A stretch of DNA of 64,000 nt. It comes from an uncultured Clostridia bacterium. Its GTDB lineage: Bacteria > Bacillota > Clostridia > TANB77 > CAG-508. The stretch is from positions 14,041-78,040 of the forward strand of contig CALXVB010000002.1 in the NCBI GenBank assembly GCA_944391855.1, given 5' to 3'. The notes below the pieces were generated by a model. It had not been told where the DNA came from, did no database searches, and was given only the letters and a program-made list of their open reading frames with translations. Positions 7,648-47,081 of this stretch are shown in pieces (the first letter of the stretch is position 1; each line of letters begins with the position of its first letter). The position numbers and the translations under genes were made by a program.

Positions 7648-7665
7648 TACATTTATTACAATAAA

Positions 7666-29753: not shown

Positions 29754-29807
29754 TCAGAAGTTCAAAAAAAAATATACAGCATGGTCATAAAAAAGGAGGA
29801 AAATATT

Positions 29808-31097
29808 ATGACTAATAAACAAAAAGAATTGATGGGTAACTTATTACGGAGTAACTTGTTAGTTTCAACAGGTTGCACAGAACCAATTGCTATAGCCTAT
29901 GCAGCAGCAGTAGCAAGAACTTATTTGAATGAAGAACCTGCAGATATTACATTGCATATTAGTAAAAATATGGCTAAAAATGCAATGGATGCTGGAATTC
30001 CAAATTCAAAATATACAGGTACAGCATTTGTAGCTTCGCTTGGAGCCTTATATGCTAATCCAAAAGATGGTTTTCAATTGCTTGAAAATCTTTCGGATGA
30101 ACAGCATAAAGTGGCAAATCATTTTGCAAAAGAACATGTAAATATCGAAATTGCCGATACAGACAAAGCATTGTATATTGAAGTAGAAATGCAAGGAATT
30201 AAAGTTAAGGCTTCTAGAGATCCCTGTCGATGTTGTAATACTGTTAAGTTAATTGTAACTGATGGACATACTAATGTCAATTTGATTGAAGTAAATGGTG
30301 AAAAAGTATTTGAGTTTAGCATTGACGAATCTACTTCTGAAAGTAAAAATACGGAGAAAATAGATTTTTCTATGAAAGAAGTGTTCGAATATGCAGAAGA
30401 ACTTGAAGATTTACAGATTTTCCAAAAAGCTCTTGACTTAAACAAAAAATTAAGTGAAGTTGGTAAAAGAGATAATTGGGGGTTGAATGTTGGAAAAATA
30501 AAACCTTTCGGTGAAGACACTGCTTTGTCAAGAATTATATCTTCAACAACTTCGGCGATTGATGCAAGAATGGCAGGTGCTCCATATCCCGCTATGGCTT
30601 GTACAGGAAGTGGTAATCAAGGAATTTCCACAACTATACCAGTTTATCAAGCTGGTATCGAGCTTAATGCTAGTATGGATAAAATTTTACGAGCAATAGC
30701 AATAAGCGATTTGACAGCCATCTTTGTAAAGAGAAACTTAAATGTTCTTTCTTACTTATGTGGTGCAGTAATAGCAAGTTGTGGATCTTCTGCAGGAATC
30801 ACTTATTTGCTGGGAGGAGATTATGAAGATGCAGAATATGCAGTAAAAAATGTTTTAGCATCTGTTACTGGAATGTTCTGTGATGGGGCTAAAAGCACGT
30901 GTGCTATGAAGGTCTTGGTTTGTTCCACAATGGCTGTTTATGCAGCTAATATGGCAATGTTAAGTAATAGTAAAATTACACAGAAAATCGGAATCGCTAG
31001 AGAAAGTCTTATAGATACAATAAAAAATGTATCTATACTGGAAAGCGAAACCTCACAAACCATGGATGATACAATAATGAAAATTATTGTAAAGTGA
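29808..31097 (+). CDS. L-cysteine desulfidase family protein (CdsB/YhaM, UPF0597)
   Basis: STGCTEPIAIAYAAA motif; AAGGAGGAAA RBS; holds the only in-frame CGG codon seen (LLRSN, 29851). Confidence 0.7.
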   Translation: MTNKQKELMGNLLRSNLLVSTGCTEPIAIAYAAAVARTYLNEEPADITLHISKNMAKNAMDAGIPNSKYTGTAFVASLGALYANPKDGFQLLENLSDEQHKVANHFAKEHVNIEIADTDKALYIEVEMQGIKVKASRDPCRCCNTVKLIVTDGHTNVNLIEVNGEKVFEFSIDESTSESKNTEKIDFSMKEVFEYAEELEDLQIFQKALDLNKKLSEVGKRDNWGLNVGKIKPFGEDTALSRIISSTTSAIDARMAGAPYPAMACTGSGNQGISTTIPVYQAGIELNASMDKILRAIAISDLTAIFVKRNLNVLSYLCGAVIASCGSSAGITYLLGGDYEDAEYAVKNVLASVTGMFCDGAKSTCAMKVLVCSTMAVYAANMAMLSNSKITQKIGIARESLIDTIKNVSILESETSQTMDDTIMKIIVK

Positions 31098-31117
31098 AAT
31101 GTAAAATTTGAACTTCG

Positions 31118-31150
31118 AATTGGGTGTCCTATTAGGGCACCCAATTCAAG
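31118..31150 (+). terminator. rho-independent terminator after cdsB-like
   Basis: GAATTGGGTGTCC-tatta-GGGCACCCAATTC hairpin. Confidence 0.75.
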
Positions 31151-31212
31151 TGTAAAAGAATAAAAAGTTAAAAGTTAAATAAAAAGCTAAATAAAAAAAG
31201 TTAAAAATAGTG

Positions 31213-31241
31213 TTGACAAAAATAATTAAAAATCATATAAT
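31213..31241 (+). promoter_or_regulatory. perfect sigma-A consensus promoter TTGACA-N17-TATAAT
   Basis: An exact match to both hexamers with a 17-nt spacer. Confidence 0.7.
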
Positions 31242-31273
31242 AAAATAAATCAAGAAAGAAAGGAAAGATATAA

Positions 31274-31318
31274 ATGATATTAATAAATATAATCTCTAAT
31301 TGCTGTTGTATGAATTAA
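31274..31318 (+). CDS. 14-aa leader peptide MILINIISNCCCMN with three consecutive Cys codons (attenuator leader)
   Basis: RBS AAAGGAAAG; TGC TGT TGT at 31301-31309. Overlapping stem 31310-31354, then a terminator. Lies upstream of the cysK-like gene. Confidence 0.5.
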   Translation: MILINIISNCCCMN

Positions 31319-31393
31319 TACTCTGTCTATTGTAGACATGAGTATTAAAATTCATGCCTACAGAGAGATTATATTTTATAAGATAAATTATAA

Positions 31394-31432
31394 AACTATG
31401 TGGGCATTTTTAATACTACACATAGTTTTTTT
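31394..31432 (+). terminator. attenuator terminator: 9-bp stem AACTATGTG/CACATAGTT, 15-nt loop, T7
   Basis: Segment 31340-31358 can alternatively pair with the terminator loop and 5' flank (GGCATTTTTAATACT). Confidence 0.7.
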
Positions 31433-31474
31433 ATTGTTATATATAAAAATAAAAAAAGATTTAGGAGGGTTAAT

Positions 31475-32446
31475 ATGTTTAAAAAGAATGAATTTATAGG
31501 AAATACACCAATGATAAAAATAATTTATAAATATAATGGTAAGATAAAAAAAATATTTGTTAAACTAGAATATTTTAATTTAACTGGAAGTATTAAAGAT
31601 AGAGTGGCTTTTTATATAATTAATAATGCTAAAAAAAGAGGAAAATTAAAAGATGGAATGGCAATAGTCGAAGCAACAAGTGGAAATACAGGTATCGCAC
31701 TATCAGCATTAGGAACTTACTATAAACATCCAGTATATATTTTTATGCCTGATTGGGCAAGTAAAGAAAGAATTAAATTAATGGAAGGATATGGTGCTAA
31801 AGTATTTTTGATTTCAAAAGAAGATGGAGGATTTATAAGGTGTGTAAATGAAGCAAAAAAATTATCTAAAGAACTAGATGGCTATTTGTCTAATCAATTT
31901 GCGAATGAAGATAATTATTTAGCTCATTATGAAACTACCGGAGAAGAAATATTAAATCAAATCCCAGAAAAAATAGGAGGTTTTGTATCTGGTATAGGTA
32001 CAGGAGGAACTTTGATGGGAATAGGAGATAAATTAAAAGAAAAATATAATAATATATATATAACAGCTATTGAACCAGATAAAATGCCTATACTATCTGG
32101 TGGAAAAATATTAGGACAACACAAAATAGAAGGAATTGGTGATGATTTTGTTCCAGAATTAGTAGATAAAAATAAAATTGATAAAATTATACAAATAAAT
32201 GATGATGATGCAATTAACATGTCTAGAAAATTATCAAGACAATTAGGAATAGGAGTTGGAATTTCATCTGGTGCAAATTTGATTGGTAGTATATTGCTTT
32301 CAGATGAAATAGAAGATAATGTAGTTACAGTGTTTGCCGATGATAATAAGAAATATTTATCCACAGACTTGTTTAAAGACATCGATAATAATAAAGAATT
32401 TATTTCCAACAATGTTGAATTATTAAGTTATGAAGAGTTGCATTAA
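31475..32446 (+). CDS. cysteine synthase family PLP enzyme (CysK/CysM-like)
   Basis: SIKDR lysine motif, TSGNTGIA, GTGGT, SSGAN. The ORF-track start at 31400 lies inside the terminator; real start ATG 31475 with AGGAGGG RBS. Confidence 0.85.
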   Translation: MFKKNEFIGNTPMIKIIYKYNGKIKKIFVKLEYFNLTGSIKDRVAFYIINNAKKRGKLKDGMAIVEATSGNTGIALSALGTYYKHPVYIFMPDWASKERIKLMEGYGAKVFLISKEDGGFIRCVNEAKKLSKELDGYLSNQFANEDNYLAHYETTGEEILNQIPEKIGGFVSGIGTGGTLMGIGDKLKEKYNNIYITAIEPDKMPILSGGKILGQHKIEGIGDDFVPELVDKNKIDKIIQINDDDAINMSRKLSRQLGIGVGISSGANLIGSILLSDEIEDNVVTVFADDNKKYLSTDLFKDIDNNKEFISNNVELLSYEELH

Positions 32447-32724
32447 GTAAAATATTTGATAGTTTTGTAATAATAATAAAACTGTAACAATAAAAATATA
32501 ATAATTAAATTAACAATAAAAGAAAATAAGTATAAAATATATAAGTAATTAGTGGAAATCTTGAGAAATAACTATGATTATGATATAATAACAGTATTCA
32601 ATCATATAGTTATTGCCTAAAAAATTTTAGGCGATGAATTAAAATACATCGTTTAAACTTTTAAGGTAATACTATCTGTTTGTAAGCAACTCAAAAAAAG
32701 CAAATTTTAAGGAGGTCATTAACA

Positions 32725-34197
32725 ATGAAAATCACAAACTCTATGAGCGGAAAAAAAGAAGAATTTGTACCTTTAAAAGAGGGCGAAGTAAAAATGTATG
32801 CTTGCGGTATCACTGTATATGATTTAAGCCACATTGGTCATGCTAGGCAAGCAATCGACTATGCTATGATTACGGATTATCTCAGGTATAGGGGATATCA
32901 CGTAACATACGTACGTAATTATACTGATGTTGATGACAAAATCATCATAAAAGCTAATGAGTTAGGGAAAAATGCTTTGGATTTTTCTGGAGAGCAGATT
33001 CTTGAGACTGAGAAGGACATGAAAGCATTACATGTTACAGATGCAGATATAAAGACTAAAGCATCTGAGTATATTCCACAAATTATAAAATTTGTGGAAG
33101 GTCTTATCGAAAAAGGTCATGCATATGCAACAAAGAATGGAGATGTTTATTTTTCAGTAAAGACAGATAGTGAATATGGGAAATTATCTCATAGAAAAGT
33201 AGAGGAACTGCGAAATGGTGTACGTGTCGAACTAGACGAAGAAAAAGAGGATCCAGTTGACTTTGCTTTGTGGAAAGCTGCAAAACCTGGAGAGATTTAT
33301 TGGGAATCTCCTTGGGGAAAAGGAAGACCAGGTTGGCATATTGAATGCTCAGCTATGGCTTTAGATACTCTTGGAGAAACAATTGATATTCATGGTGGAG
33401 GAAGAGATTTAGTATTTCCACATCACGAAAATGAAATTGCACAAAGTGAATCTTTGACAGGCAAACCTTTTGCAAAATACTGGAGTCATTGCGGTCTGAT
33501 AAAGATCAATGGACAAAAAATGGGAAAATCGTTGGGAAATTCCTTAACAATAAGGGATGCTTTAGCAAAGTATAATTATGAAGTGATTAAATGCACTATA
33601 CTTTCTAAACACTACACATCAGATATTGATTTGCATGATAGCGATTTTCAGCTTGCAGAAGGTCATATGTACTATTTTTATAGTACAATCAAAGCAATGG
33701 AAAATTTTATTTCTAGCAATGGGGGAGATGCTACATCTGAAATTCTCGAAGACGAAATTCCAAATACTATCATTTCTAAATTTATTGAAGTGATGGATGA
33801 TGACTTTAACTCAGCAGTAGCAATTGCAAATTTGCACACAATCTTCAAATATGCAAATAACTTAATGAAATCTGCCAAGAAAGCAAACAAACAGATAGTA
33901 GCCAATACTTTGGCAAAGGCTTTGAAAGATTTGAAAAGTGTTTACAAAATTTTAGGCTTTTTTGAGCAAGAACCAGAGAGATTCCTTTTAGAAATGAAGG
34001 AAAAATACCTTAAAGAGCTTAATATCGATGTAGACGAGGTTGAAACCCAGATTTTAAAGAGAGCAGAGGCTAAAAAGAGAAAGGACTTTGAAACAGCTGA
34101 TGCAATTAGAAATGAGCTTGAAGCAAAAGGTATTCTTTTGAAGGATACTAGGGAAGGTACTGTCTGGGATTTGAAAATGCTTTATAACTTTAATTAA
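32725..34197 (+). CDS. cysS: cysteinyl-tRNA synthetase
   Basis: HIGH (SHIGHAR), KMGKS (KMGKSLGN), zinc ligands, full anticodon-binding domain; AAGGAGGT RBS. Confidence 0.95.
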   Translation: MKITNSMSGKKEEFVPLKEGEVKMYACGITVYDLSHIGHARQAIDYAMITDYLRYRGYHVTYVRNYTDVDDKIIIKANELGKNALDFSGEQILETEKDMKALHVTDADIKTKASEYIPQIIKFVEGLIEKGHAYATKNGDVYFSVKTDSEYGKLSHRKVEELRNGVRVELDEEKEDPVDFALWKAAKPGEIYWESPWGKGRPGWHIECSAMALDTLGETIDIHGGGRDLVFPHHENEIAQSESLTGKPFAKYWSHCGLIKINGQKMGKSLGNSLTIRDALAKYNYEVIKCTILSKHYTSDIDLHDSDFQLAEGHMYYFYSTIKAMENFISSNGGDATSEILEDEIPNTIISKFIEVMDDDFNSAVAIANLHTIFKYANNLMKSAKKANKQIVANTLAKALKDLKSVYKILGFFEQEPERFLLEMKEKYLKELNIDVDEVETQILKRAEAKKRKDFETADAIRNELEAKGILLKDTREGTVWDLKMLYNFN

Positions 34198-34215
34198 AAA
34201 GTTGTAAGGTGAAAT

Positions 34216-34260
34216 CTATTGATTAGATTGAGGAAATTTTTCCTCAATCTAATCAATATT
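34216..34260 (+). terminator. long hairpin after cysS (16-bp stem ATTGATTAGATTGAGG/CCTCAATCTAATCAAT)
   Basis: Perfect inverted repeat with a weak T-tract. Confidence 0.5.
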
Positions 34261-34267
34261 ATATAAT

Positions 34268-34342
34268 GGTGTTGTAGCCAAGCGGTAAGGCATGAGTCTG
34301 CAAAACTCTGATTCGTCGGTTCGAATCCGTCCAACACCTCCA
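34268..34342 (+). tRNA. tRNA-Cys (GCA), somewhat divergent
   Basis: Acceptor GGTGTTG/CAACACC, D-arm GCCAAGCGGTAAGGC (same as B. subtilis tRNA-Cys), loop CU-GCA-AA, T-loop TTCGAAT, discriminator U, CCA. There are U-U mismatches in the anticodon and T stems. Confidence 0.8.
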
Positions 34343-34363
34343 AAAAAGTTTAAATAAAAAAAT

Positions 34364-34396
34364 AAAGAATTTGTCAATTCTTTATTTTTTTATTTA
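34364..34396 (+). terminator. rho-independent terminator
   Basis: AAAGAATTGTCAATTCTTT + T-run. Confidence 0.7.
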
Positions 34397-34485
34397 TATA
34401 TTAAATTAATTGATATCAATACTTTTAAAAATAATTATATAACTAAAGATAATAATAACATTAGTAAATAAAATTATGACATAAT

Positions 34486-34514
34486 TTGACAAAAAACAAA
34501 AAAAACAGTATAAT
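34486..34514 (+). promoter_or_regulatory. second perfect TTGACA-N17-TATAAT promoter, driving the small ORF and the radical-SAM operon
   Basis: Exact consensus. Confidence 0.65.
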
Positions 34515-34558
34515 ATCACTGGATTTAGCGAATTTTTATATTAAGATAGGAGTAAAAA

Positions 34559-34648
34559 ATGATAATTAGAATGATTAATAATGTAAGATATTTCAATAAA
34601 AATAAAATTGATAACATTTTCTGTACTATTTTTGTGCCTAAATTCTAA
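34559..34648 (+). CDS. 29-aa small ORF MIIRMINNVRYFNKNKIDNIFCTIFVPKF: candidate precursor peptide or regulatory uORF
   Basis: AGGAG RBS 6 nt upstream; own promoter; followed by hairpin 34656-34690; sits immediately 5' of the rSAM operon. Confidence 0.35.
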   Translation: MIIRMINNVRYFNKNKIDNIFCTIFVPKF

Positions 34649-34655
34649 AAAATAA

Positions 34656-34690
34656 AGAGTCAAGGATTTTCTTTGACTCTTTGTTTTTTT
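34656..34690 (+). terminator. terminator/attenuator between the small ORF and the operon
   Basis: AAGAGTCAA-ggattttct-TTGACTCTT + T8. Confidence 0.7.
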
Positions 34691-34730
34691 TAGAATAAAA
34701 TAAATATTAATTTAAGTTAGGAGTGATTTT

Positions 34731-35768
34731 ATGATAAAGGGAATAAAAACAAAAAATATCAAACCAATAGTTAGGAAAAGAATGGATAAACTTGTACAGA
34801 AGTTAAAAGCAAAACCTGAAGTTGAAGGCATAGTTTATTTAAGTGGACTTGCAAATACGGAATACAAAGATTTTATCGATGAATACTCTGATATAGATAT
34901 TGGAATTTTTCTTAATGTTGATAGAGAACATTTACCTAATTGGTTGCCACCATTCTCATTTTATATTGTTATAACAGATCAAGATGGTTTTGATAAGACA
35001 ATGGAAGTGAATTTTCATCAAAAAATTTATGATGAAGAAAAAAATTCACAATGGCATGATTATAAGAAAGAATTTTATAAATATGCTTGTGAGATTGTTT
35101 TTGATAGAAACGGAAGGATAGAAAAGTTAATTAATGAAAAAACAGTTTTTACAGAAGAATATAGAAAACTATTACTATCTCATTTATTATCAAGGATTTA
35201 TTGGATGGTAGAAATTAATCCATTAAATGCAGTAAAAAGAGGATTAATTTTTAATGGAGAAGATTTATTGAATCAAGGATTAAATTATGTAACTGACCTC
35301 CTTTATGTCTATGATAAAAAATTCCCACCTGCTGCAAAATGGAAAATATCTCTATTAGGCAATTTAGACTTCTGTCCAAATAATATAGAAAAAAGAATTG
35401 AAAATTGCTTTATAGTGAATGAAATTTCAGAAGAAGATGTTTTAAGAAGAAGAAAAGAAATGCTTTCAATAACTAAGGAAATAGAAAATAAAGTATTTGA
35501 AGAAGGTCTTTTTAAGTCTACTGAAGATTACATAGAATATGAATATAAAAATTGGAATGCACAGCAAAAACAGTTAAAAGATATTACACAGTATGACATA
35601 ATTGTTTCAAAATTTAACGATATTTCTACAGAAGAAAGAAAAATACTAAAGGGTATATTATGTGAATATTTTATTACAAATTTAGAAGATTTAACTAAAA
35701 TATCAACTGAAGAATTAAATGAAATACAAAAGAATCTATTACATAAAATAATTAAAAAAATTAATTAA
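34731..35768 (+). CDS. nucleotidyltransferase-fold protein (ANT(6)/AadK-like N-terminus)
   Basis: IVYLSGLANTEYKDFIDEYSDIDIGIF resembles the GSRAN..D.DI motif of ANT(6). Confidence 0.5.
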   Translation: MIKGIKTKNIKPIVRKRMDKLVQKLKAKPEVEGIVYLSGLANTEYKDFIDEYSDIDIGIFLNVDREHLPNWLPPFSFYIVITDQDGFDKTMEVNFHQKIYDEEKNSQWHDYKKEFYKYACEIVFDRNGRIEKLINEKTVFTEEYRKLLLSHLLSRIYWMVEINPLNAVKRGLIFNGEDLLNQGLNYVTDLLYVYDKKFPPAAKWKISLLGNLDFCPNNIEKRIENCFIVNEISEEDVLRRRKEMLSITKEIENKVFEEGLFKSTEDYIEYEYKNWNAQQKQLKDITQYDIIVSKFNDISTEERKILKGILCEYFITNLEDLTKISTEELNEIQKNLLHKIIKKIN

Positions 35769-35809
35769 AATTAATAATTTATTACGTTAAATAAGAGGGG
35801 AAATGAAAA

Positions 35810-37153
35810 ATGGAAATAAAAAATGAAACAAATAATGAATTTTATTTAGGAAGAAAATCTATTTTTATACCAATTGTTTTTTTGATTATTAGCATAATAG
35901 TTTTAGTTATATTGAAGAGAGCTTCTCTAAAAACTTTTTGGATAATCGGATTTTTTGCTATATTTTTAACATATTTGTTATCAAAAAATAAAAAAGAATT
36001 TGGAAATAAATGTGTTGAAAATTTAAAAAGTAATACTTTATTGACTTATGTTCTTATCTTTATTTTGGCAGGAATATTATCCAGTATATTAAAAGTAACA
36101 GGAGTTTCAAATGCCCTTTTAACAATTTTTATAAATACTGGTGTTGGTCCGGAATTTATACCTGCTATAATGTTTATTATATGTTGCTTAATATCTACTT
36201 TTATTGGTACAAATACTGGTACATATTCTATAGTAGTACCTATTTTTCTACCAATTGCAGTGTCATTAAATTGTAACCCTGCTTTAGCACTAGGAGCTAT
36301 CATGTGTGGAGGAGGTTTTGGTGATAATTTATCACCAATATCAGATACTACAATAATTTCCGTGAATACCATGAAAGTTAATTTGCTTGACACATTAAAG
36401 GTAAGAGTAAAAACATCTTTAGGTTGTGCATTATTATCAACAGTGATCTTTATAATTCTAGGTCATTTACTAATTACAAATCCAACAAATAATATTGAAA
36501 CTTATGCAAATGATTCGTTGATGCCATTATTAATGCTAATAGTCTTTGTGTTAATGATGTTTTTATTGCTAAAAAAGAATGACTTAATTTCAGTTTTATT
36601 AATATGTGATGTGTTTGCAATTATTTTAGCTATGGTATTTGGATTTGTATCTTTTGGAGATATGTTTAGTCAAAATAGTCCTATAATTTCTGGCATAGAA
36701 GGTGTTTTTGGAGTTATTGTATTTTGGATTTTCTTGTTTATATTAACTGAATTTATACCTACAGATATGTTGGAGGAATATATTAATAAAAAAGTAAAAA
36801 ATAGTAAAAGCCCTTCTCGAACTAATGGACTAGCTGCTTTAACTATAATTTCATCAATATTGTTGATATCTAATAATACTGCTGCAATGTCTTTACTTAG
36901 CAAGTTCATAGACAAATGCTTTAAAAATAAGACACAAATAGAAAAAGCAAATATATTTGATGGACTTTCATGTGCTACATCTACCTTAATACCATATAAT
37001 ACAGCTGTTATGTTAATGATTAGCCTTGCATATGGAACAGGTTGTTTACCTGAAAGTTTTTCACCTATTTCAATAGTTATGTTTTCAATAAATAGTATGT
37101 TATTGCTAATTACATATACATTTAAATCTATATATGATCCTAAAAAAGATTAA
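35810..37153 (+). CDS. NhaC-family membrane transporter (Na+/H+ antiporter family)
   Basis: ~11 TM segments; motif GGGFGDNLSPISDTTI. Confidence 0.7.
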   Translation: MEIKNETNNEFYLGRKSIFIPIVFLIISIIVLVILKRASLKTFWIIGFFAIFLTYLLSKNKKEFGNKCVENLKSNTLLTYVLIFILAGILSSILKVTGVSNALLTIFINTGVGPEFIPAIMFIICCLISTFIGTNTGTYSIVVPIFLPIAVSLNCNPALALGAIMCGGGFGDNLSPISDTTIISVNTMKVNLLDTLKVRVKTSLGCALLSTVIFIILGHLLITNPTNNIETYANDSLMPLLMLIVFVLMMFLLLKKNDLISVLLICDVFAIILAMVFGFVSFGDMFSQNSPIISGIEGVFGVIVFWIFLFILTEFIPTDMLEEYINKKVKNSKSPSRTNGLAALTIISSILLISNNTAAMSLLSKFIDKCFKNKTQIEKANIFDGLSCATSTLIPYNTAVMLMISLAYGTGCLPESFSPISIVMFSINSMLLLITYTFKSIYDPKKD

Positions 37154-37194
37154 AGGAGGCATAATAAAATTGAAGTATTATAGGAGAAAAGATT

Positions 37195-37914
37195 ATGTTT
37201 TTGAAAAATAAAAAAGATTTGGATTTAGTTATTTTTGATTTTGATGGAACTTTAGTAGATTCCAATGGAGTTAATAATGAAATAGATATTGAACTAGTTC
37301 GCTCTTTCAAAGAAAGGAAAAATCCAGACGAAATTATAAAAGAAAGAGACTATATTTTAAAAACTAAAACAAATGGAGATATATATGTAAATTATTGCCA
37401 ATATTTAAAAGAAAAATATAATTTGGATTTGCTAGCAGAGGAAATACTTGAAATTCGTAGAAAAATATCAAAAAAATTTTTAAGGAATGTAAAATATAAA
37501 CCTGGTGCTGATATAATAATAAAATTAATAAAAGAACAAAAAATAAAATTAGCATTAGCAACAGTTTCAAGTTTGCAATCATTAAATATTTATTTTTATG
37601 AAAATGAAAACATAATAAAAAAATGTGATTTACAAAATTATTTTGATTTAATCGTTACAAAAGATGATGTTATTTATAAAAAACCAAATCCAGAAGTCTA
37701 TAATAAAATAATAAATAAATTTAATATTACAAATTTATCAAAATGTATAGTAATTGAAGATTCATTAAATGGGGTTATTGCAGCGAAAAGAGCAAATCTT
37801 AATGTTATAGCAATTTATGATAAATATTCTGATAAAGATAGAGAAAAAATAAATGAAATTGCAGATTACAATGTGAAAAACTTTGAGGAATTAATAGCCT
37901 TATTTAAGAACTAA
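37195..37914 (+). CDS. HAD-superfamily hydrolase/phosphatase
   Basis: Motif I LVIFDFDGTLVDS; motif IV ..EDSLNG. Confidence 0.8.
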   Translation: MFLKNKKDLDLVIFDFDGTLVDSNGVNNEIDIELVRSFKERKNPDEIIKERDYILKTKTNGDIYVNYCQYLKEKYNLDLLAEEILEIRRKISKKFLRNVKYKPGADIIIKLIKEQKIKLALATVSSLQSLNIYFYENENIIKKCDLQNYFDLIVTKDDVIYKKPNPEVYNKIINKFNITNLSKCIVIEDSLNGVIAAKRANLNVIAIYDKYSDKDREKINEIADYNVKNFEELIALFKN

Positions 37915-37933
37915 TAAAGGGAGGAGATTTAAA

Positions 37934-38935
37934 ATGATATCACCATGTGTATTTAAACAAAGAAAAAGTGATAATTATGTAACATTTATTGAAATAACAA
38001 ATTGTTGCAATATGAAATGTAAACATTGTATGAATGGATCAAACGATAAAGAGATTAACAAAGGATTTTCAATCGAAAATATAAAGAAACTATTAGAAGA
38101 ACTTTACGAAAATAAGACAGAAAAAATTTATATATCTGGAGGAGAACCTCTATTATATCCATATATAGATGATGTGATTTTATATGCTAATTCTTTGGGA
38201 ATGAAAGTAACACTTGCAACTAATGGATTAGAGATTCCTAAACATTTAGATGCAATAAAAAAAGGAGTTCAATTAGTTTCAGTTAGTCTTGATGGAATTG
38301 GGAAAACACATGATAAATTTAGAGGTGTTCAAGGATCATACGAAAACTGTATAGAAGTTTTAAAGTTATTAAAAGAAAACAATGTAAAAACTAAAATAAG
38401 TGCAATGATATGGAAAGAGAATATAGAAGAATTGGAGGATATGATTATTTTAGCTAAATCTTGTGGTGTTTCAAAAATTAATTTTGCATTCATGTTACCA
38501 GAAGGAAGAGCAAAGTTAGATGAAACAATTAAAGTGCCTGATAATAGATATAGAGAAATATTCGATAAAATGGAAAAATTAATAAAGAAATATGCAAAAG
38601 AGGACTTTGAAATAAGATTTAGAAGAACTGATGTGCTAGATAAAAATAGTTTAGACTGTCCAGGGGGAAAAAATTTAATGCATATAGATGTAAATGGTAA
38701 GGTATCTCCTTGTTCTTGGATAGCTAAATTAGATAAAGAAAATGAATTTTCATCATATTGGCCTAAAAGTAGTATTAGCGAATGTATAAAAAAATTTGAT
38801 GCTTTTGATAATTGTAAAAAAACAAGAAAAGATAAATTTGGATACTGTGGTTGTATTGCACTTGCTAATATGTATAATGGTAATTTTTTAGCAGAAGATC
38901 CATTAAATAAAGTTTTAAAAGAAAGTAGGAGATAA
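37934..38935 (+). CDS. radical SAM enzyme with C-terminal SPASM/twitch domain (rSAM-1)
   Basis: CNMKCKHC (CX3CX2C), GGEP, C-terminal Cys cluster. Confidence 0.85.
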   Translation: MISPCVFKQRKSDNYVTFIEITNCCNMKCKHCMNGSNDKEINKGFSIENIKKLLEELYENKTEKIYISGGEPLLYPYIDDVILYANSLGMKVTLATNGLEIPKHLDAIKKGVQLVSVSLDGIGKTHDKFRGVQGSYENCIEVLKLLKENNVKTKISAMIWKENIEELEDMIILAKSCGVSKINFAFMLPEGRAKLDETIKVPDNRYREIFDKMEKLIKKYAKEDFEIRFRRTDVLDKNSLDCPGGKNLMHIDVNGKVSPCSWIAKLDKENEFSSYWPKSSISECIKKFDAFDNCKKTRKDKFGYCGCIALANMYNGNFLAEDPLNKVLKESRR

Positions 38936-38938
38936 ATT

Positions 38939-39676
38939 ATGGACAAATATGCAATAATAACTGGTGTATCTTCTGGAATTGGGGAATGCATAGCAAAAAA
39001 ATTTATAGAAGATAACATACATGTTTTTGGAATAGATGAAAACCAACCAAAAAATAAAAAAATCGATTTTTTTGAATGTGATATTAGGGATGAAGAAAAA
39101 ATAATAGATATTTTTAACAAAATTAGTAAAAAAACAAAATATATCAATTGTTTAATAAATTCAGCAGGTATTTTTTGTTATAGTGAAAGAAATTTAATAG
39201 AAAATCTTTCAAAAACAGAATGGCAAAGCGTTATTGATGTAAATTTAACAGGTACATTTTTAATAACAAAGCATTCAATACCATTATTAAAAAAATCATC
39301 AAATGGCAACATTATAAATTTGAGCTCTGAACAAGTTGTTTTACCTCAAATAAAGAGTGCACCATATGCAGTTACTAAAGCTGCCATAGAAATGTTCTCT
39401 AAAATATTAGCACTTGAACTAATTGATTCAAAAGTCAGAGTCAATACTATAGCTCTAGCATCTGTAAAAACTAATTTTTTAAAAAGATACAAAAAAGATG
39501 ATGAGATTATAAAGAAAATGATGGAAGCTACAGATAAAAATATGCCTTTTGGTATTATTGATCCATATGATGTATATAAATTAGTTAGATATTTAATAGA
39601 AGAAGATACTAAAATTACAGGACAAACTATTCTTATTGATAGCGGAGTTATATTATCTGCTAATAAAAAGAAATAG
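38939..39676 (+). CDS. SDR-family short-chain dehydrogenase/reductase
   Basis: TGVSSGIG glycine motif; YxxxK (YAVTK). Confidence 0.85.
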   Translation: MDKYAIITGVSSGIGECIAKKFIEDNIHVFGIDENQPKNKKIDFFECDIRDEEKIIDIFNKISKKTKYINCLINSAGIFCYSERNLIENLSKTEWQSVIDVNLTGTFLITKHSIPLLKKSSNGNIINLSSEQVVLPQIKSAPYAVTKAAIEMFSKILALELIDSKVRVNTIALASVKTNFLKRYKKDDEIIKKMMEATDKNMPFGIIDPYDVYKLVRYLIEEDTKITGQTILIDSGVILSANKKK

Positions 39677-39739
39677 TTTGTAGTTGTAAGATAAAAATAA
39701 TAGAATGTTTTTGAAAAAATGAGAAAGGAATGAATTGTA

Positions 39740-40927
39740 ATGAAAAAAGTGGAATATGATTTAGATGGGAAGAATAAACTGTATTTTTTTCCAGAGTATA
39801 ATAGATTTACTTTTAATGATCCTAACCCTGAAATTGTAGCTGATTATTATAGTGATTCATTAGTAAAATTAAGATTAGAAATCTCTCATTTATGTAACGG
39901 AAGATGTAAGTATTGTTTAGTTTATGGAAATAATGTGGAAAAAGCAGAAATTTTGAATGTTAAAGAATTCTGGAAATACCTTGTAAGTCAAGAGTGGTTT
40001 AAAAACATAAAAAAAATTTTCATTATTGGAGGAGAGCCTTTACTTCATTTTGAAGAAATATCATATATTATAGATAATTTTAATGGAAAAATTAGTTTTT
40101 CCACAAATGGTACATTAATAACTAAAGATATGGCTAAGAAATTTTCAAAATCGAATGTAAAGGTGTATATATCACTTGATGGACCAGAATTTGAAGATAA
40201 TATTAATAGAGTATATATAAACCAAGAATTTATGTATCCAGATATTATAAAAGGAATAAATTTGCTTAAAGAATATAATGTGAAATTTGGTATTTTTATG
40301 GTTGCTACTCCAGAAACAGTAAAGAAAGCAACAAATATGATTTTAAAATTAGATGAAAAATATTCACCAATAAGAATTGGATATAATCTTCCACATTGGA
40401 CTCCAGATTATGAAAATAACGGTCTAGCAGAAGAATTTAGAGATGTGTTATTAGAACTTTATAAAAATAGAAAAAAATTAAAAGCAGAGATTCCTCAATT
40501 AAAATGGAGATTAAATCCTTTGTGTGAAGGAAAAGTTAAGAAATTTTCATGTGGATTACATACTACTCAGACAACAATTTTACCAGATAAATCAATTATA
40601 AGATGCTCAAAAATTGATAATGAAAACGATAATTTAAAATTACGTGTTACGAATGAATTACTTGATAAAAATTCACCAATAGAATTGGCAAAAGACAAAA
40701 AATCTAATTGTTCAAAATGTATTGCATTATCATGTTGTGGAGGAGGATGTCCTTTTGATGGAATGAAAAGATTCAATTGCCTAACAGATAGAAGAGAATG
40801 TGTAATTACACCTCCACTTGTCAATATGGCTATAAATAATGTTGTTGAAAAATTTAAGAGTCAGGAAATTAAAGTTCCAAATGGATTAATAAAACCTGAT
40901 ATAATCAATAAATTAATTTGGAGTTGA
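39740..40927 (+). CDS. radical SAM/SPASM enzyme with ~45-aa N-terminal extension (rSAM-2)
   Basis: CNGRCKYC; C-terminal CSKCIALSCCGGGCPFDG. Confidence 0.85.
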   Translation: MKKVEYDLDGKNKLYFFPEYNRFTFNDPNPEIVADYYSDSLVKLRLEISHLCNGRCKYCLVYGNNVEKAEILNVKEFWKYLVSQEWFKNIKKIFIIGGEPLLHFEEISYIIDNFNGKISFSTNGTLITKDMAKKFSKSNVKVYISLDGPEFEDNINRVYINQEFMYPDIIKGINLLKEYNVKFGIFMVATPETVKKATNMILKLDEKYSPIRIGYNLPHWTPDYENNGLAEEFRDVLLELYKNRKKLKAEIPQLKWRLNPLCEGKVKKFSCGLHTTQTTILPDKSIIRCSKIDNENDNLKLRVTNELLDKNSPIELAKDKKSNCSKCIALSCCGGGCPFDGMKRFNCLTDRRECVITPPLVNMAINNVVEKFKSQEIKVPNGLIKPDIINKLIWS

Positions 40928-41613
40928 GATTTTATAAAATGAAGGAAAAGATAAATGAAATAAAAAAAATTATGTTAGGACATATTCCAATTAATATATC
41001 TATAGTAGTTATAACACCACTGTCTTCAACATTTTATAAATTATGTAAAAGGTTAGATATAAAAGAAAAATATGATAATGGCTTTTTTGAAAATTGCATT
41101 TTTAGACTTAATTATGAAGAAGATAAAAGGGGAATATTAATTTTATCACCACAAGGAATTGCTTCCAAGGATATAATCGAATTGTTTTCCAATATTAATA
41201 TTTTGTTTTTTGGTTTAGCAGGAAGTCTAAATAAAAAATATGAGATTGGAAGCTTTGTAGAAGTTATATTAGCTGAAGATGAGTATGGAGAAATTTCAAA
41301 ACTTAATACAATAGGAAAAAAAGAAATGGTAAAATGTGGCTATTCTCCATGTTTACTTGGTGAAATTGAAAAGAAATATTGTGAATTTGCTAGGAATGAA
41401 AATTGTGATGTTGTAGATATGGAAACTACTTATTGTGCAAAAACGGCAATTGAAAGAAATAATAGATTTGTATCATTATTATTAATATCAGACATTCCAA
41501 AAGTAATTAACTTTTGGGAGTTATCAGATATAGAACGTAATAAACTTAAAGAAGGTAGAAAAGATGCAATAAATGAAATAATAAATTATATAAATATTTT
41601 AATAAAGGAGTAG
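40918..41613 (+). CDS. PNP/MTAN-superfamily nucleosidase-like protein (likely start ATG 40939)
   Basis: ILSPQGIASKD..FFGLAGSL and VVDMETTYCA resemble the MTA/SAH nucleosidase DMESAA motif. Confidence 0.5.
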   Translation: MELRFYKMKEKINEIKKIMLGHIPINISIVVITPLSSTFYKLCKRLDIKEKYDNGFFENCIFRLNYEEDKRGILILSPQGIASKDIIELFSNINILFFGLAGSLNKKYEIGSFVEVILAEDEYGEISKLNTIGKKEMVKCGYSPCLLGEIEKKYCEFARNENCDVVDMETTYCAKTAIERNNRFVSLLLISDIPKVINFWELSDIERNKLKEGRKDAINEIINYINILIKE

Positions 41614-41617
41614 AAAA

Positions 41618-42520
41618 ATGAGTGATGAAATAGTTATAAAATATATAGAAACAACAAGTAAATGTAATTATGCTTGTCCAATATGTGTTAAAAGAACAAG
41701 AAATTGTAATATGAATATTGAAGAGTTTTATAAAATAGTCGATAGAAATATTGAGTTATTTCACAAAAAGCCTATTTGGCTTGATCTTAATGGCGAACCA
41801 CTAGTAGATCCTTACTTTTTTGATAGGGTAAAATATATGCAGAGTAAAGGACTTAAGACTAGAATATCCACTAATGGTGCATTATTAAATAAAGAAAATA
41901 TAGAAAAAATTGTAGACTCAGGTATGAATTATATTGTTGTATCAGTTGGAACTTTAAATCCATCAGTATATAAACAAATAAGAGGAATTGATAATTTATC
42001 TAAAGTTTTAAATAATTTGGATAACTTGAAAAAGTATGTTGATAAGACACATGCTAACACTGAACTTCAAGCTGTTATGATAGATACAGGAACTAATTTA
42101 GATAGAGAAGAATTTATTAAATATTTTCATGATCGTGGGATTAATGTCGCATTCCATAATTTTACTAATAGAGCCCATAGTATAGAAATGGATTTAAATC
42201 CTAAAAGTAGAGATTTTAGTACATATGAAAGAGGAGAGTGCAAGGGATTAAAACGTAATATAATAATTCTTAGTAATTGTGAAGTTATAACTTGCTGTTG
42301 TGATTTTTTAGCCAGAAATTCTTTGGGGAATTTAAGGGATTATGACTATTCTGTAAAAAAATTAGTTGAAAATGGGAATTTAGATCAATTAATTTCTGAT
42401 TTACGAAACCATATATATAAAGGATCTTGCAAGGATTGTTCTGATTGGATATATTATCAAGAAAATGCAACAGAAGAATATGTTACAGTGTATCCAGTAA
42501 ATAAAACAACATCTAATTAA
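41618..42520 (+). CDS. radical SAM enzyme with C-terminal Cys-rich (SPASM/twitch-like) domain (rSAM-3)
   Basis: CNYACPIC; C-terminal CEVITCCCDF..CKDCSDW. Confidence 0.8.
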   Translation: MSDEIVIKYIETTSKCNYACPICVKRTRNCNMNIEEFYKIVDRNIELFHKKPIWLDLNGEPLVDPYFFDRVKYMQSKGLKTRISTNGALLNKENIEKIVDSGMNYIVVSVGTLNPSVYKQIRGIDNLSKVLNNLDNLKKYVDKTHANTELQAVMIDTGTNLDREEFIKYFHDRGINVAFHNFTNRAHSIEMDLNPKSRDFSTYERGECKGLKRNIIILSNCEVITCCCDFLARNSLGNLRDYDYSVKKLVENGNLDQLISDLRNHIYKGSCKDCSDWIYYQENATEEYVTVYPVNKTTSN

Positions 42521-42549
42521 GTTATAGAATATATACTATAATCATAAAA

Positions 42550-42598
42550 ATAGAGGAAAATTAAATTTTATTTTGAAAATCCTCTATTTTTTTATAAT
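42550..42598 (+). terminator. operon terminator
   Basis: AATAGAGGAAAAT..ATTTTGAAAATCCTCTATT + T7. Confidence 0.75.
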
Positions 42599-42709: not shown

Positions 42710-42930
42710 GGATCTGTCAAAGATACAAGAGTTTTTAGTTATGCCACAAAAATATTAAGAAATGGGGTAGAGATAAAAGATGTTGCTGAATATTAGGACA
42801 TAATAATATAGAAACAACAGAAAATTACTATATATCTAGTTCTAAAAAATTTAGAAAAAATGCAAATGATATATTTGAAAAAATAACTTTTTCTAACACT
42901 ATACAAGAAATAGCTAATTATATATATTAA
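42710..42930 (+). pseudogene. 3' remnant (~70 codons) of a tyrosine recombinase/integrase with an internal frameshift near 42787
   Basis: Translates as ..GSVKDTRVFSYATKILRNGVEIKDVAEY/LGHNNIETTENYYISS.. (R..H..GH..Y catalytic block); no N-terminal portion. Confidence 0.7.
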
Positions 42931-43498: not shown

Positions 43499-43579
43499 TA
43501 AATTGGGGTGGTGAAAATCACTCCTTAATCTTTGACAAAATAATCTATATATGCTATATTAACATTGTTAAAATAAAAA

Positions 43580-44708
43580 ATGGAGAGTGATTTAATGATA
43601 GATTTTGACTCTACAACTACTGAACTTTCTAATCTTAGTTCTAAATTAACCGAAATTGGTGATTCACTTTGACATTTCTAGTTTAGAAAAAGAATTAAAA
43701 GAATTAGAAAAAGAGACTACTAGCCAAGAATTTTGGGAAAACCAACAAAATACTTCAAAAGTATTAAAAAGAATTACAGAAATAAAAAATAAGATCGAAG
43801 AATATAAGGTGACTAATAATAACTTAGATAATCTCATAGATTTAGTAGAACTATTAAAAATAGAAAAAGATGAGCAATTAGAAGCCGAGTTAGAAAAAAA
43901 CATGCTGGCTCTAAAAAAAGACATAGATAAACTTGAAATATCTACACTTCTTTCTGGAAAGTATGATATTAATAATGCAATTATAACTCTTCATCCCGGG
44001 GCAGGTGGAACTGAAGCACAGGATTGGGTAGAAATGCTATACAGAATGTATACAAGATGGGCAAATGCAAATGGATACAAGGTAGAAGAGTTAGATTATC
44101 TCCCTGGAGATGAGGCAGGAATAAAAAGTGTAACATTTCTAGTATCTGGAGATTATGCTTATGGATATTTAAAAGGAGAACAAGGTGTACACAGGCTTGT
44201 TAGAATTTCTCCTTTTGATTCAGGAGGAAGAAGACATACTTCATTTGCTTCTGTCGAAGTTCTTCCAGAAATTTCAGAAGATATTGAAGTAGATATAAAT
44301 CCAGATGATTTAAAAGTGGACACATATAGAGCATCTGGTGCAGGTGGCCAACACATAAATAAAACTTCTTCTGCAGTTAGAATTACACATATTCCTACTA
44401 ACATAGTGGTAGCATGCCAAACTGAAAGGTCTCAAATACAAAATAGGGAAACAGCCATGAAAATGCTTAAATCTAAACTATTACATTTAAAAGAACAAGA
44501 ACATAAAGAAACCATTGATGAATTAAAAGGTATACAAATGGATATTGCCTGGGGAAGCCAAATACGCTCATATGTATTTTGTCCATATACAATGGTAAAA
44601 GACCACAGAACAAATTACGAAGTAGGTAATGTAGATAGTGTAATGAACGGAGATTTAAATGGATTTATTGATAGTTATTTAAAATATATTAAGAAAGGAA
44701 AACCATAA
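43580..44708 (+). CDS. prfB: peptide chain release factor 2 with the canonical programmed +1 frameshift (CUU UGA C at 43667-43673)
   Basis: Frame 0 gives MESDLMIDFDSTTTELSNLSSKLTEIGDSL*. The +1 frame continues DISSLEKE.. through GGQ (SGAGGQHINK) and SPF. SD-like GGUGAU precedes the site. Confidence 0.95.
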
Positions 44709-46091: not shown

Positions 46092-47081
46092 ATGGCATTT
46101 TATTCATATATCTTTTCAGCAAATTATAAAAGATTTTTTAATAACATAAAAAAAGTAGCAGAAAAGGAACATAAAAGCTTTATAAAAATGGTATTCGATA
46201 CAGGATACTGTGTATTTAGATATGGATTTGGACTTACAGATTATTTAAATTATCAATTATATAATAAAAATAAATCTGAAAGAAAGAAATATTTAAGCAC
46301 TAAAAAAGAAAATAAATTTTATGAGATAGTATCTCCAAGTGCATATAAACAAAGATATACAATAAAACCTAATTTTTTAGAAGATTTCAAAAAATATACA
46401 AAAAGAGACTTCTTTGTACCTAAAGAAGGAAATTTTGACGAATTTATAAATTTTTTAGAAAAACATGAGGTATTCATGTCTAAACCATACGACGGGCTTG
46501 GTGGCGCTGACGTAAAAAAAGAATATGCTAAAAATATAGAAAACAAAGAAGAATATTTTAATAATGCAATACAAAATAGAATATTTCTAGAAGAATTAGT
46601 AGTTCAGCATCCTGAAATGAATAAATTATGTAGTACAAGTGTAAACACTATGCGTATAATGACTTTTAACAATCATGGTAATCCACGAATACTTTGGATG
46701 GGATTAAGAGTTGGAAATGGAATAAATGCTATCGACAATTTTCATGCTAAAGGCATGGCTGTAAATATTGATATAAATACTGGAAAACTTGTAGGAAATG
46801 CCATAGACAAGGATTTAAATGAATATATAGAACATCCAACTACACATATAAAATTTAACGGATTTCAAATTCCTTGCTTTGAAGAAGCAAAAAAAATGGT
46901 ACTAGAAGCAAGCCTTGAAAGTGACAAAATATTAGTTGTAGGTTGGGACGTAGCTATATCTGATAAAGGACCAGTTATAATAGAAGGAAATAGGAGACCA
47001 GGATTTGATATAGTACAAGTCTTATCCGGTGGAAGAGTTGATATTGTAGACAATGTACTAGCAGATATGAATGAACTATAG
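46092..47081 (+). CDS. sugar-transfer-associated ATP-grasp family protein
   Basis: ATP-grasp C-terminal half; family-typical aromatic N-terminus. Its stop TAG is embedded in a solo 29-nt repeat arm. Confidence 0.65.
   Translation: MAFYSYIFSANYKRFFNNIKKVAEKEHKSFIKMVFDTGYCVFRYGFGLTDYLNYQLYNKNKSERKKYLSTKKENKFYEIVSPSAYKQRYTIKPNFLEDFKKYTKRDFFVPKEGNFDEFINFLEKHEVFMSKPYDGLGGADVKKEYAKNIENKEEYFNNAIQNRIFLEELVVQHPEMNKLCSTSVNTMRIMTFNNHGNPRILWMGLRVGNGINAIDNFHAKGMAVNIDINTGKLVGNAIDKDLNEYIEHPTTHIKFNGFQIPCFEEAKKMVLEASLESDKILVVGWDVAISDKGPVIIEGNRRPGFDIVQVLSGGRVDIVDNVLADMNEL

Follow-up and report, generated by a model that had tools for sequence, protein, structure and literature searches.

Radical adenosylation followed by the removal of adenine is an established biosynthetic logic, used by MqnE/MqnB in the futalosine route to menaquinone and by HpnH/HpnG in the formation of the hopanoid side chain. 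Radical S-adenosylmethionine (SAM) enzymes are also found in nucleoside-antibiotic clusters: for 4'-thiothymidine, a radical SAM enzyme, a kinase and a nucleotide hydrolase suffice (thmA-C), and the cluster follows an NTPase-resistance logic (PMC12691670). We examined an operon of eight genes (g1–g8) in a stretch of 64,000 nucleotides from an uncultured Clostridia bacterium (GenBank assembly GCA_944391855.1, contig CALXVB010000002.1, positions 14,041 to 78,040; hereafter the window), in which three radical SAM enzymes are combined with a short-chain dehydrogenase/reductase (SDR), a HAD phosphatase, an MTAN-like enzyme, an NhaC-family transporter and a nucleotidyltransferase. This locus combines two units that also occur separately, namely the g1–g2 pair and the g3–g8 module, and is best explained as a horizontally assembled accessory operon. 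Judged by analogy, its closest known logic would be radical adenosylation with adenine removal, and next to it that of the radical SAM nucleoside-antibiotic clusters such as thmA-C. The explanation that we lean towards, with slightly better than even confidence, is an accessory small-molecule pathway encoded in a fused operon under a leader attenuator.

The full g1–g8 set was detected in the window species and, at decreasing amino acid identity of g1, in the related loci L020 (89%), L021 (85%), L033/34 (81%), L035/36 (72%) and L016-18 (70%). The g1–g2 pair was also found without the module, in the order cysS-g1-NhaC followed by housekeeping genes (L022), cysS-g1-PglZ/phosphodiesterase-NhaC (L011-14) or UPF0182-g1-phosphodiesterase-NhaC (L023). 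The g3–g8 module, in turn, was present without g1, g2 and cysS in L025/26, L027/28, L030/31 and L032, with 59–76% amino acid identity (59–63% for g3). On their 3' side, these module-only loci carried a PfkB kinase together with a histidine phosphatase (His_Phos_1), a NUDIX hydrolase or a metallophosphoesterase, and on their 5' side a tyrosine integrase (L025), a serine recombinase (L027/28) or a LysR regulator (L030), while the copy in L032 adjoined a PnuC-type transporter. The best matches of the PfkB kinases, which were weak, were ribose-1-phosphate kinases, and the histidine phosphatase matched CobC best. A distant variant of the module (L029) included in addition a pyridoxal phosphate-dependent decarboxylase and a Gfo/Idh/MocA oxidoreductase. 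Homologues of g7 formed 65 clusters, and the g8 type was represented by 9 sequences at E <= 1e-30 among 1.84 billion proteins. Plasmid and phage records gave just distant radical SAM matches (24–30% identity) and IMG/VR gave none; the g3–g8 module is confined to uncultured, low-GC gut Clostridia.

A phosphodiesterase of the alkaline phosphatase superfamily recurred near both units (L033:18043-19215, L030:18707-19858, L011:11288-12391), with 35–49% identity between loci. Its gene separated g1 from g2 in L011 and L023, followed g8 in L033/34 and lay at a distance of 5 kb from the module in L030; the window had none. Some carriers had broken operon genes, as g2 was frameshifted in L033/34 (L033:11050-12379) and the SDR gene was split in L025/26 (L025:8054-8798), as would be expected of an accessory system in flux. 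The operon of the window had a GC content of 25%, compared to 28–30% in the flanks, and was followed by the frameshifted remnant of a tyrosine recombinase; when its two frames were joined, the remnant matched Phage_integrase with 31 bits (cutoff 27.1) at profile positions 135–169 of 172. The low GC content and the integrase remnant suggest horizontal acquisition or past mobility. We found no second copy of the tRNA-Cys 3' end around the operon. One metagenome contig (L004) was 100% identical to the window over g1–g7 but had a different left flank with a minus-strand ABC-transporter membrane gene; the two sequences part (L004:1039-1170) precisely where tRNA-Cys ends on its 3' side, between window positions 34343 and 34344. 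At 3x coverage, this contig may show another insertion site or be a chimeric assembly.

The three radical SAM enzymes of the module (g4, g6 and g8) matched the Pfam Radical_SAM domain (100.5, 67 and 61 bits, respectively), but scores for the Pfam SPASM domain were below cutoff in all of them, g8 reaching 18.7 against 21.5. The original prediction of three radical SAM/SPASM enzymes was thus upheld for the radical SAM core and for the auxiliary-cluster cysteines, which were conserved, and not for the SPASM profile itself. In particular, g6 had C52/C56/C59 plus C271, C289, C324, C327, C333, C337 and C354 conserved in 9 out of 9 sequences, and g4 had C25/C29/C32 plus C5, C242, C260 and C307. These family-conserved residues support the presence of auxiliary clusters, with seven cysteines in g6, seven in g8 and four to six in g4. 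The best NCBIfam match of g4 was AhbD (145, cutoff 500), with NirJ2 also among its matches, and its best PDB match was BlsE; for g8 it was a tungsten-cofactor maturase (94, cutoff 380). We also considered prokaryotic viperin (pVip) defence and rejected it: the PADLOC matches (57–87 bits) cover the radical SAM core alone, the NCBIfam viperin model scored 80 against 180, and the enzymes have SPASM-type C-termini. Altogether, g4, g6 and g8 appear to be three unclassified SPASM/twitch radical SAM enzymes that act on a small molecule and not on a peptide.

The remaining enzymes of the module were assigned at the level of fold or superfamily. For g3, the HAD_2 score was 91.8 bits and the best NCBIfam model was the hexitol phosphatase HxpB (92.6, cutoff 191), while g5 matched adh_short with 150.7 bits and reached no NCBIfam cutoff. 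The combination of radical SAM enzymes with this SDR recalls the deoxygenation carried out by AprD4/AprD3. The structural model of g7 had a predicted local distance difference test score (pLDDT) of 94.3, and its top Foldseek matches in the PDB were the H. pylori MTAN/futalosine hydrolase, MTAP and PNP (TM-score about 0.7, about 14% identity). We aligned g7 to what we take to be the E. coli MTAN sequence: the invariant DME and SD motifs of g7 (M161/E162, S184/D185) correspond to M173/E174 (ribose) and S196/D197 (purine), whereas the N-terminal GAMEEE loop of MTAN, with the water-activating Glu12, is replaced by an invariant TPL(K/S)ST. The match to PNP_UDP_1 was weak and the curated nucleosidase family was not reached (NF005522, 18.7 against 161). 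Based on the model, g7 is predicted to be an MTAN-fold N-glycosidase or phosphorylase.

The MTAN-fold enzyme, the kinase, the NUDIX hydrolase and three kinds of phosphatase, with no peptide apparatus, led us to read the module as part of a nucleoside or pentose-phosphate pathway, and the small molecule on which g3–g8 would work is most likely derived from adenosine or a pentose phosphate. A modified sugar or nucleoside had been offered as the alternative in the original prediction, and it fits the partners of the module elsewhere (PfkB kinase, NUDIX hydrolase, histidine phosphatase, metallophosphoesterase). In such a pathway, an adenosyl-containing intermediate would come either from an imported nucleoside or, by the route of MqnE/MqnB and HpnH/HpnG, from the addition of the SAM-derived 5'-deoxyadenosyl radical to a substrate, and g7 would strip adenine from it. 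The SDR and the remaining radical SAM enzymes would then oxidise or reduce and rearrange the pentose skeleton, and the HAD phosphatase, in other genomes together with the PfkB kinase, would set the phosphorylation state. In the version found in the window, g1 would nucleotidylate and g2 would transport the substrate or the product. The specific sequence starting with radical adenosylation is a narrower proposal, which we regard as rather unlikely.

The product of g1 had no Pfam match at the default threshold, and neither g1 nor g7 had a match in sequence searches of the PDB (phmmer for g7), so structure prediction was needed. The AlphaFold model of g1 (pLDDT 91.8) matched kanamycin nucleotidyltransferase ANT(4'), lincosamide nucleotidyltransferase LinB and the structural-genomics nucleotidyltransferase 3c18 (Foldseek matches 3c18, 3jyy, 6nmk and 1kny; E 2e-7 to 6e-6), which bore out the original nucleotidyltransferase call. 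The catalytic motif G..SDxD was invariant (G39, S53, D54, D56). Homologues of g1 carry PF13228 (DUF4037), a domain placed by Anantharaman et al. in the aminoglycoside-nucleotidyltransferase C-terminal HEPN clade (PMC3710099), and were rare, with 26 clusters in a word-index search of a 5.8-billion-protein set and 6 GTDB species. The g1 product is, as predicted from its model, a small-molecule O-nucleotidyltransferase of the aminoglycoside/lincosamide-nucleotidyltransferase fold. The g2 product matched Pfam Na_H_antiporter at superfamily level (75 bits, cutoff 23), and scored below the cutoff of the NhaC equivalog TIGR00931 (86.6 against 370). The g2 gene was found 3' of g1 in all contexts but two distant ones (i.e. 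in the window, L011, L016, L020-L023, L033 and L035). A gene with a 'sugar-transfer associated ATP-grasp' domain (PF14397) was located at window positions 46092-47081, 3.5 kb 3' of the operon, and the same domain was present 3' of a distant g1-like gene in L024 (11895-13043), which may be a coincidence.

The cysS gene flanked g1 in 10 out of 11 independent contexts, and some of them contained two types of cysteinyl-tRNA synthetase (CysRS), A and B, that were 36–40% identical to each other. Among the CysRS enzymes of the lineage, type A is the ordinary one (>120 clusters at >=76% identity; 7,835 at E <= 1e-100), and the window cysS was 66% identical to the cysS located downstream of the operon in L016 and L035. 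In L033/34 the operon was enclosed by the two types, and L016-18 and L035 showed this arrangement in a decayed state. In L016-18, the type B gene (L016:8561-9982) had the same in-frame TAA at a conserved Gln codon in three independent contigs, with an intact type A gene after the operon, and this pseudogene appears fixed in that species; in L035 type B was reduced to a remnant. Integration at a tRNA-Cys that always follows type A cysS was considered as the cause of the adjacency and rejected: an operon-less relative had the order valS-cysS_A-spoIIAA with no tRNA-Cys, so a fixed cysS-tRNA-Cys integration site does not account for the adjacency. Distant relatives of g1 (30–34% identity) were located in clusters with a CysRS-like gene and amino-acid ligases, racemases or BtrH/acyl carrier protein genes. 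In the window, cysS was preceded by a cysteine desulfidase-like gene (SDH_alpha/CyuA type) and a PALP-family cysK-like gene (29781-32446), and the order cyuA-(cysK)-cysS recurred in L020 and L033. The original prediction had linked the operon to these adjacent cysteine genes as suppliers of the pathway; the genomic association with cysS stood, and nothing supported a pathway fed by cysteine. The link could be explained by shared regulation through cysteine or Cys-tRNA status, by CysRS acting as a partner enzyme, or by CysRS being the target of the product. We know of no described system that accounts for a nucleotidyltransferase-fold enzyme and an NhaC carrier beside cysS.

The 29-codon open reading frame (ORF) located between the promoter and g1 looks like the translated leader of a transcription attenuator rather than a peptide precursor. 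The g1 promoter was conserved in three related species (L020, L021 and L033), and promoter-like sites were not enriched in the AT-rich DNA of the window (67 found, 79 expected). The leader ORF was kept in three close species: the window (29 codons), L020 (29 codons, MIIKMINNTKSFKKNKCNKINYSIFVSKF) and L033 (31 codons, MEKSNISFFKLINFAECLCSIFVSKCIKCDK). An open frame of 29 codons is expected by composition with a chance of about 3%. Conservation of the leader was limited to the C-terminal (S/T)IFV(S/P)K, whose 19-nt coding stretch did not vary among the three leaders, even at synonymous positions; over its length, the leader was 62% identical at the amino acid level compared to 89% for g1, a much faster divergence than that of its neighbours. 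Cysteine codons made up 6 of the 89 codons in the three leaders, against 1.2–1.4% in the proteins of the window (p about 0.001–0.007); every leader had at least one of them. The leader terminators of L020 (-16.0 kcal/mol) and L033 (-16.4 kcal/mol) were located at the same position with different stem sequences, and the leader stop codon was at most 6 nt from the core stem in 3 out of 3 species. In L021, a different 16-codon ORF without hairpin was found at this site, while L016 and L035 had no leader, and a type B cysS gene or its remnant abutted g1. No ORF related to the leader was found in the module-only loci (L025, L027/28, L030, L032). Since the ORF is restricted to loci with the g1 promoter and absent from the module-only loci, it belongs to this type of g1 promoter region and not to the radical SAM genes.

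Transcription would start at the single consensus promoter and proceed through the translated leader, whose stop codon abuts the intrinsic terminator. By occupying the 5' arm of the terminator, a ribosome that finishes the leader would melt the hairpin and allow read-through, whereas a ribosome stalled upstream, for example at the leader cysteine codon(s), would let the terminator form; this sign of the regulation is what we infer from the conserved geometry of leader and terminator. A clear antiterminator was not found for the leader. No riboswitch or T-box was detected in the leaders or upstream of cysS in the window and eight related loci, and a scan of JGI metagenomes with the leader motif gave 8 matches, all of them unrelated chance matches with no operon genes nearby. 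RNAalifold on the three leader sequences returned a long-range helix that was weak (-7.1 kcal/mol, with a single compensatory pair) and in which the invariant 19-nt stretch pairs with the 5' end of the leader.

The original prediction had favoured a locus for a ribosomally produced, post-translationally modified peptide (RiPP) or a peptide-derived cofactor, in which the 29-residue ORF would be the precursor, g4, g6 and g8 the maturases, and the hairpin would set the precursor-to-enzyme stoichiometry. This layout was not supported by our comparison, and we give it very little probability, the least among the explanations weighed here. A small ORF with its own ribosome-binding site and terminator does precede SPASM-type radical SAM enzymes with auxiliary-cluster cysteines, and g4 has matches, below cutoff, to the models for mycofactocin, PQQ and sactipeptide maturation. 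However, the expected co-occurrence of the peptide with these enzymes was absent from L021, L016, L035 and every module-only locus, the ORF being found only in the window, L020 and L033 and tied to the g1 promoter, and its conservation was limited to the last six or so residues, which coincide with the nucleotide-invariant element. No curated family cutoff was reached in the HMM searches for radical SAM subfamilies, and every maturase model scored 3- to 8-fold under its cutoff (mycofactocin MftC, 92 against 265; PqqE, 91 against 381; AlbA, 78 against 850; PapB as given below). In g4, g6 and g8, the start of the CX3CX2C motif is at residue 25, 52 and 16, respectively, which leaves no room for an N-terminal RRE domain of 80–100 amino acids, and none was found; the operon also had no PqqD match or stand-alone small gene, and lacked proteases and peptide exporters. 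In other loci, the module keeps company with kinases, NUDIX hydrolases and phosphatases, and the RiPP interpretation should give way to the small-molecule alternative. A further explanation, unlikely in our view, is a salvage or catabolic route, in which g2 would import a nucleoside, possibly sulfur-bearing, g7 would remove the base, and the radical SAM enzymes, SDR and phosphatase would break down or recycle the sugar; the leader and the neighbouring cysS would tie expression to cysteine status. Most carriers of the NhaC family import or exchange their substrates (g2 itself falls outside the NhaC equivalog), the closest resemblance of the PfkB kinase is to the ribose-1-phosphate kinases that serve nucleoside catabolism, the transporter beside one module-only locus is of a nucleoside type (PnuC), and cyuA and cysK lie upstream in three of the loci. 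Three radical SAM enzymes would nevertheless be expensive and unusual for catabolism, most copies of the module have no transporter or dedicated regulator, riboswitches and T-boxes are absent, and the module is rare and recombinase-linked, like accessory cargo.

The cysS association bears on a further explanation, that of a producer-plus-immunity locus. The g3–g8 module would make a nucleoside-type antimetabolite aimed at CysRS, nucleotidylation by g1, efflux by g2, the phosphodiesterase and a second CysRS would provide self-protection, and the leader would sense the charging of Cys-tRNA. This is consistent with the position of cysS beside g1 in nearly all contexts, the two CysRS types around the operon in L033/34 (decayed in L016-18 and L035), the antibiotic-nucleotidyltransferase fold of g1, the enrichment of cysteine codons in the leader, and the occurrence of cysS-g1-(phosphodiesterase)-g2 without the module, as expected of an immunity-only set; there is also the precedent of aminoacyl-tRNA synthetase copies or radical SAM enzymes in the clusters of albomycin and 4'-thiothymidine (PMC12691670). 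We nonetheless consider it clearly improbable. The window has a single cysS of the ordinary type, type B was pseudogenised or lost in several carriers and is hence dispensable, the module-only loci have no cysS, g1 or g2, and a phosphodiesterase with an activating role would be hard to understand in genomes that have the immunity set alone. Moreover, a review of aminoacyl-tRNA synthetase inhibitors mentions CysRS solely in its listing of synthetase classes and not as a target (PMC7916415). If this explanation were true, a CysRS-directed antimetabolite system would come from uncultured gut Clostridia, via non-peptide SPASM radical chemistry. To our knowledge, it would be the first system for a CysRS-directed natural product. 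Even less probable, in our view, is an inducible resistance pair, with g1 (ANT/Lnu-like) and g2 as an efflux pump under a drug-sensing arrest peptide, and the radical SAM module unrelated but co-transcribed. The LinB/ANT(4') fold of g1, a weak Tet(35) similarity of g2 and a leader-plus-terminator layout typical of inducible resistance genes agree with it. The C-terminal IFV of the leader, expected by chance in about 0.7% of 29-mers, recalls the full motif of the ErmCL arrest peptide, IFVI, a resemblance that we take as a lead only. In the ErmCL arrest sequence, Ile6 and Ile9 are critical (PMC5499644). Against such a pair stand the moderate TM-scores and the low identity of g1 to known ANT enzymes (13–17%), the lack of any match of g1 and g2 to the antimicrobial resistance models in NCBIfam, the strong cysS linkage, which such a pair would not explain, and the eight-gene arrangement, which is stable down to 70% identity of g1.

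Several points weigh against the accessory small-molecule pathway under a leader attenuator that we favour. None of the enzymes could be linked to a described reaction, and the product class is a prediction. Three observations that speak for a peptide product count here as well: the best NCBIfam model of g6 is the ranthipeptide maturase PapB (105, cutoff 340), the L033 leader has 4 cysteines in 31 residues, like sactipeptide or ranthipeptide precursors, and a set of three radical SAM/SPASM-type enzymes is seen more typically in peptide maturation than in sugar chemistry. The g7 enzyme may simply remove inhibitory 5'-deoxyadenosine, and the fusion of g1–g2 to g3–g8 could be fortuitous co-transcription instead of one pathway. 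As for the leader, the enrichment of cysteine codons rests mainly on one of the three (4 of the 6 are in L033), and the 19-nt element may act as RNA rather than as codons, given the helix returned by RNAalifold. Finally, the search for att direct repeats around the operon gave only AT-rich chance repeats.

All features of the operon and its surroundings are listed in Table 1. The operon architecture was as originally predicted: all eight tightly packed plus-strand ORFs (34731-42520), the consensus promoter and strong terminator that bound them, and the small ORF with its own ribosome-binding site and terminator were confirmed, as were the domain calls (Na_H_antiporter of NhaC type, HAD_2, three Radical_SAM, adh_short and a weak PNP_UDP_1). 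The intergenic gaps from g1 to g8 were 41, 41, 19, 3 and 63 nt, an overlap (or 11 nt) and 4 nt; the start of g7 chosen by gene callers in related contigs was the ATG at 40939 (224 amino acids) and not the TTG at 40918. The tRNA-Cys gene had its own hairpin on the 3' side, at about 34351-34396 (-17.4 kcal/mol, z -6.9).

Table 1. Coordinates of the leader region, the operon and neighbouring features in the window, and the two CysRS types found around g1
Feature	Position	Strand	Description
cysS type A	32725-34197	+	490 aa; Pfam tRNA-synt_1e, DALR_2, CysS_C
tRNA-Cys (GCA)	34268-34342	+	ARAGORN and Rfam
Sigma-70-type promoter	34486-34514	+	TTGACA-17-TATAAT; 12/12 positions match
Leader ORF	34559-34648	+	29 codons, MIIRMINNVRYFNKNKIDNIFCTIFVPKF; AGGAG ribosome-binding site
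Intrinsic terminator/attenuator	34647-34692	+	Begins at leader stop codon; U-tract; -22.1 kcal/mol, z -7.0
g1	34731-35768	+	ANT(4')/KNTase/LinB-fold nucleotidyltransferase (Pol-beta nucleotidyltransferase + DUF4037/HEPN-like C-domain)
g2	35810-37153	+	NhaC-family secondary transporter
g3	37195-37914	+	HAD-IA phosphatase; first gene of the six-gene module
g4	37934-38935	+	Radical SAM enzyme, Cys-rich C-terminal auxiliary-cluster domain
g5	38939-39676	+	Classical SDR oxidoreductase
g6	39740-40927	+	Radical SAM enzyme, canonical seven-Cys SPASM motif
g7	40939-41613 (alternative TTG start 40918)	+	MTAN/futalosine-hydrolase/PNP-fold enzyme
g8	41618-42520	+	Radical SAM enzyme, seven conserved extra Cys (SPASM-like variant)
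Operon-end intrinsic terminator	42546-42594	+	-14.8 kcal/mol, z -4.4, then T-run
Tyrosine recombinase C-terminal remnant	42717-42905	+	Frameshifted; Pfam Phage_integrase
CysRS type A			488-491 aa; upstream of operon in window, L020, L021, L033; downstream in L016, L035
CysRS type B			471-485 aa; directly upstream of g1 in L011, L022, L016; downstream of operon after phosphodiesterase in L033/34

The window had a GC content of ~27% and contained sporulation genes (YabP, YabQ), as expected of a low-GC, Clostridium-like organism, and the segments identical to it came from human or animal gut metagenome contigs and one uncultured metagenome-assembled genome (MAG). A MAG contig 100% identical to window positions 29781-36200 (L019, GTDB CALXXG010000142.1) is labelled 'uncultured Rickettsiales bacterium', a label that looks wrong given the clostridial YabP and YabQ and the ~27% GC. 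Elsewhere in the window, we identified a full-length class A RNase P RNA (7296-7650, 293 bits) and prfB (release factor 2; 43580-44708), whose 30-codon and 350-codon ORFs overlap at CTT TGA C (about 43667-43673), the classical programmed +1 frameshift site, with a near-consensus promoter at 43532-43560. The operon proteins were annotated in the source records as 'hypothetical protein' or not at all, the searches with Pfam, NCBIfam and PADLOC gave no match above cutoff beyond superfamily level for the eight proteins, and no paper on this gene set was found in the literature search.

If the SPASM/twitch enzymes of the module act on a non-peptide substrate, their chemistry would widen the known reactions of this subfamily, and genome-mining tools may file such a product class as RiPP. 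The module is rare, mobile and found in gut Clostridia, and its product could matter for gut competition or metabolism. The leader is a candidate for cysteine- or translation-sensing attenuation in a compact regulatory element. We consider the cysS link the part most worth following, as a concrete handle on accessory functions linked to aminoacyl-tRNA synthetases.

Compared with described leader-peptide attenuators, the leader shares with the trp/his type (codon sensing) and the pyrBI type (ribosome-RNA polymerase coupling) a short translated ORF followed at once by an intrinsic terminator, an enrichment in codons for one amino acid (here Cys), and a stop codon placed so that the terminating ribosome would overlap the terminator stem; it differs from them in having no clear antiterminator, 1–4 Cys codons and three examples. 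The g1 product has the same two-domain fold (Pol-beta nucleotidyltransferase plus a helical HEPN-like domain) and G..S..DxD motif as ANT(4')/KNTase and LinB/Lnu, but with 13–17% identity, about 90 extra C-terminal residues and no match to a resistance model, and its conserved neighbourhood is that of cysS and an NhaC carrier instead of resistance cassettes. The radical SAM enzymes have the CX3CX2C core and C-terminal auxiliary Fe-S cysteines of BtrN, BlsE, AhbD/NirJ and anSME-like enzymes, but are 3- to 5-fold below every equivalog cutoff, and no genes of the locus support the tetrapyrrole, aminoglycoside cyclitol or cytosylglucuronate substrates of those enzymes. The albomycin (abm) and thmA-C clusters resemble the module in combining a radical SAM enzyme, a kinase of the nucleoside or sugar type, and a nucleotide hydrolase or phosphatase in small mobile clusters, and the abm locus also contains an aminoacyl-tRNA synthetase copy; however, homology to their radical SAM enzymes was not detectable, the kinase is absent from the window version, and the CysRS beside this operon is the lineage's ordinary type. 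With MqnE/MqnB and HpnH/HpnG, the locus shares a radical SAM enzyme paired in one cluster with a dedicated PNP_UDP_1/MTAN-fold enzyme, and further radical SAM enzymes that here would rework the ribose-derived part; the best structural matches of g7 include, as said, the H. pylori MTAN/futalosine hydrolase. It differs in that it has no chorismate or hopanoid genes, that MqnA, MqnC, MqnD and MqnE were not among the best 25 NCBIfam matches of each of the eight proteins, and that g4, g6 and g8, with none of the MqnE, MqnC and HpnH models among their best matches, are of the SPASM/twitch type instead. In the libraries and literature searched, this module, its fusion to a cysS-linked nucleotidyltransferase/carrier pair and the leader are not described, while the kind of system to which they belong, a small-molecule cluster rich in radical SAM enzymes on a mobile module, is already known.

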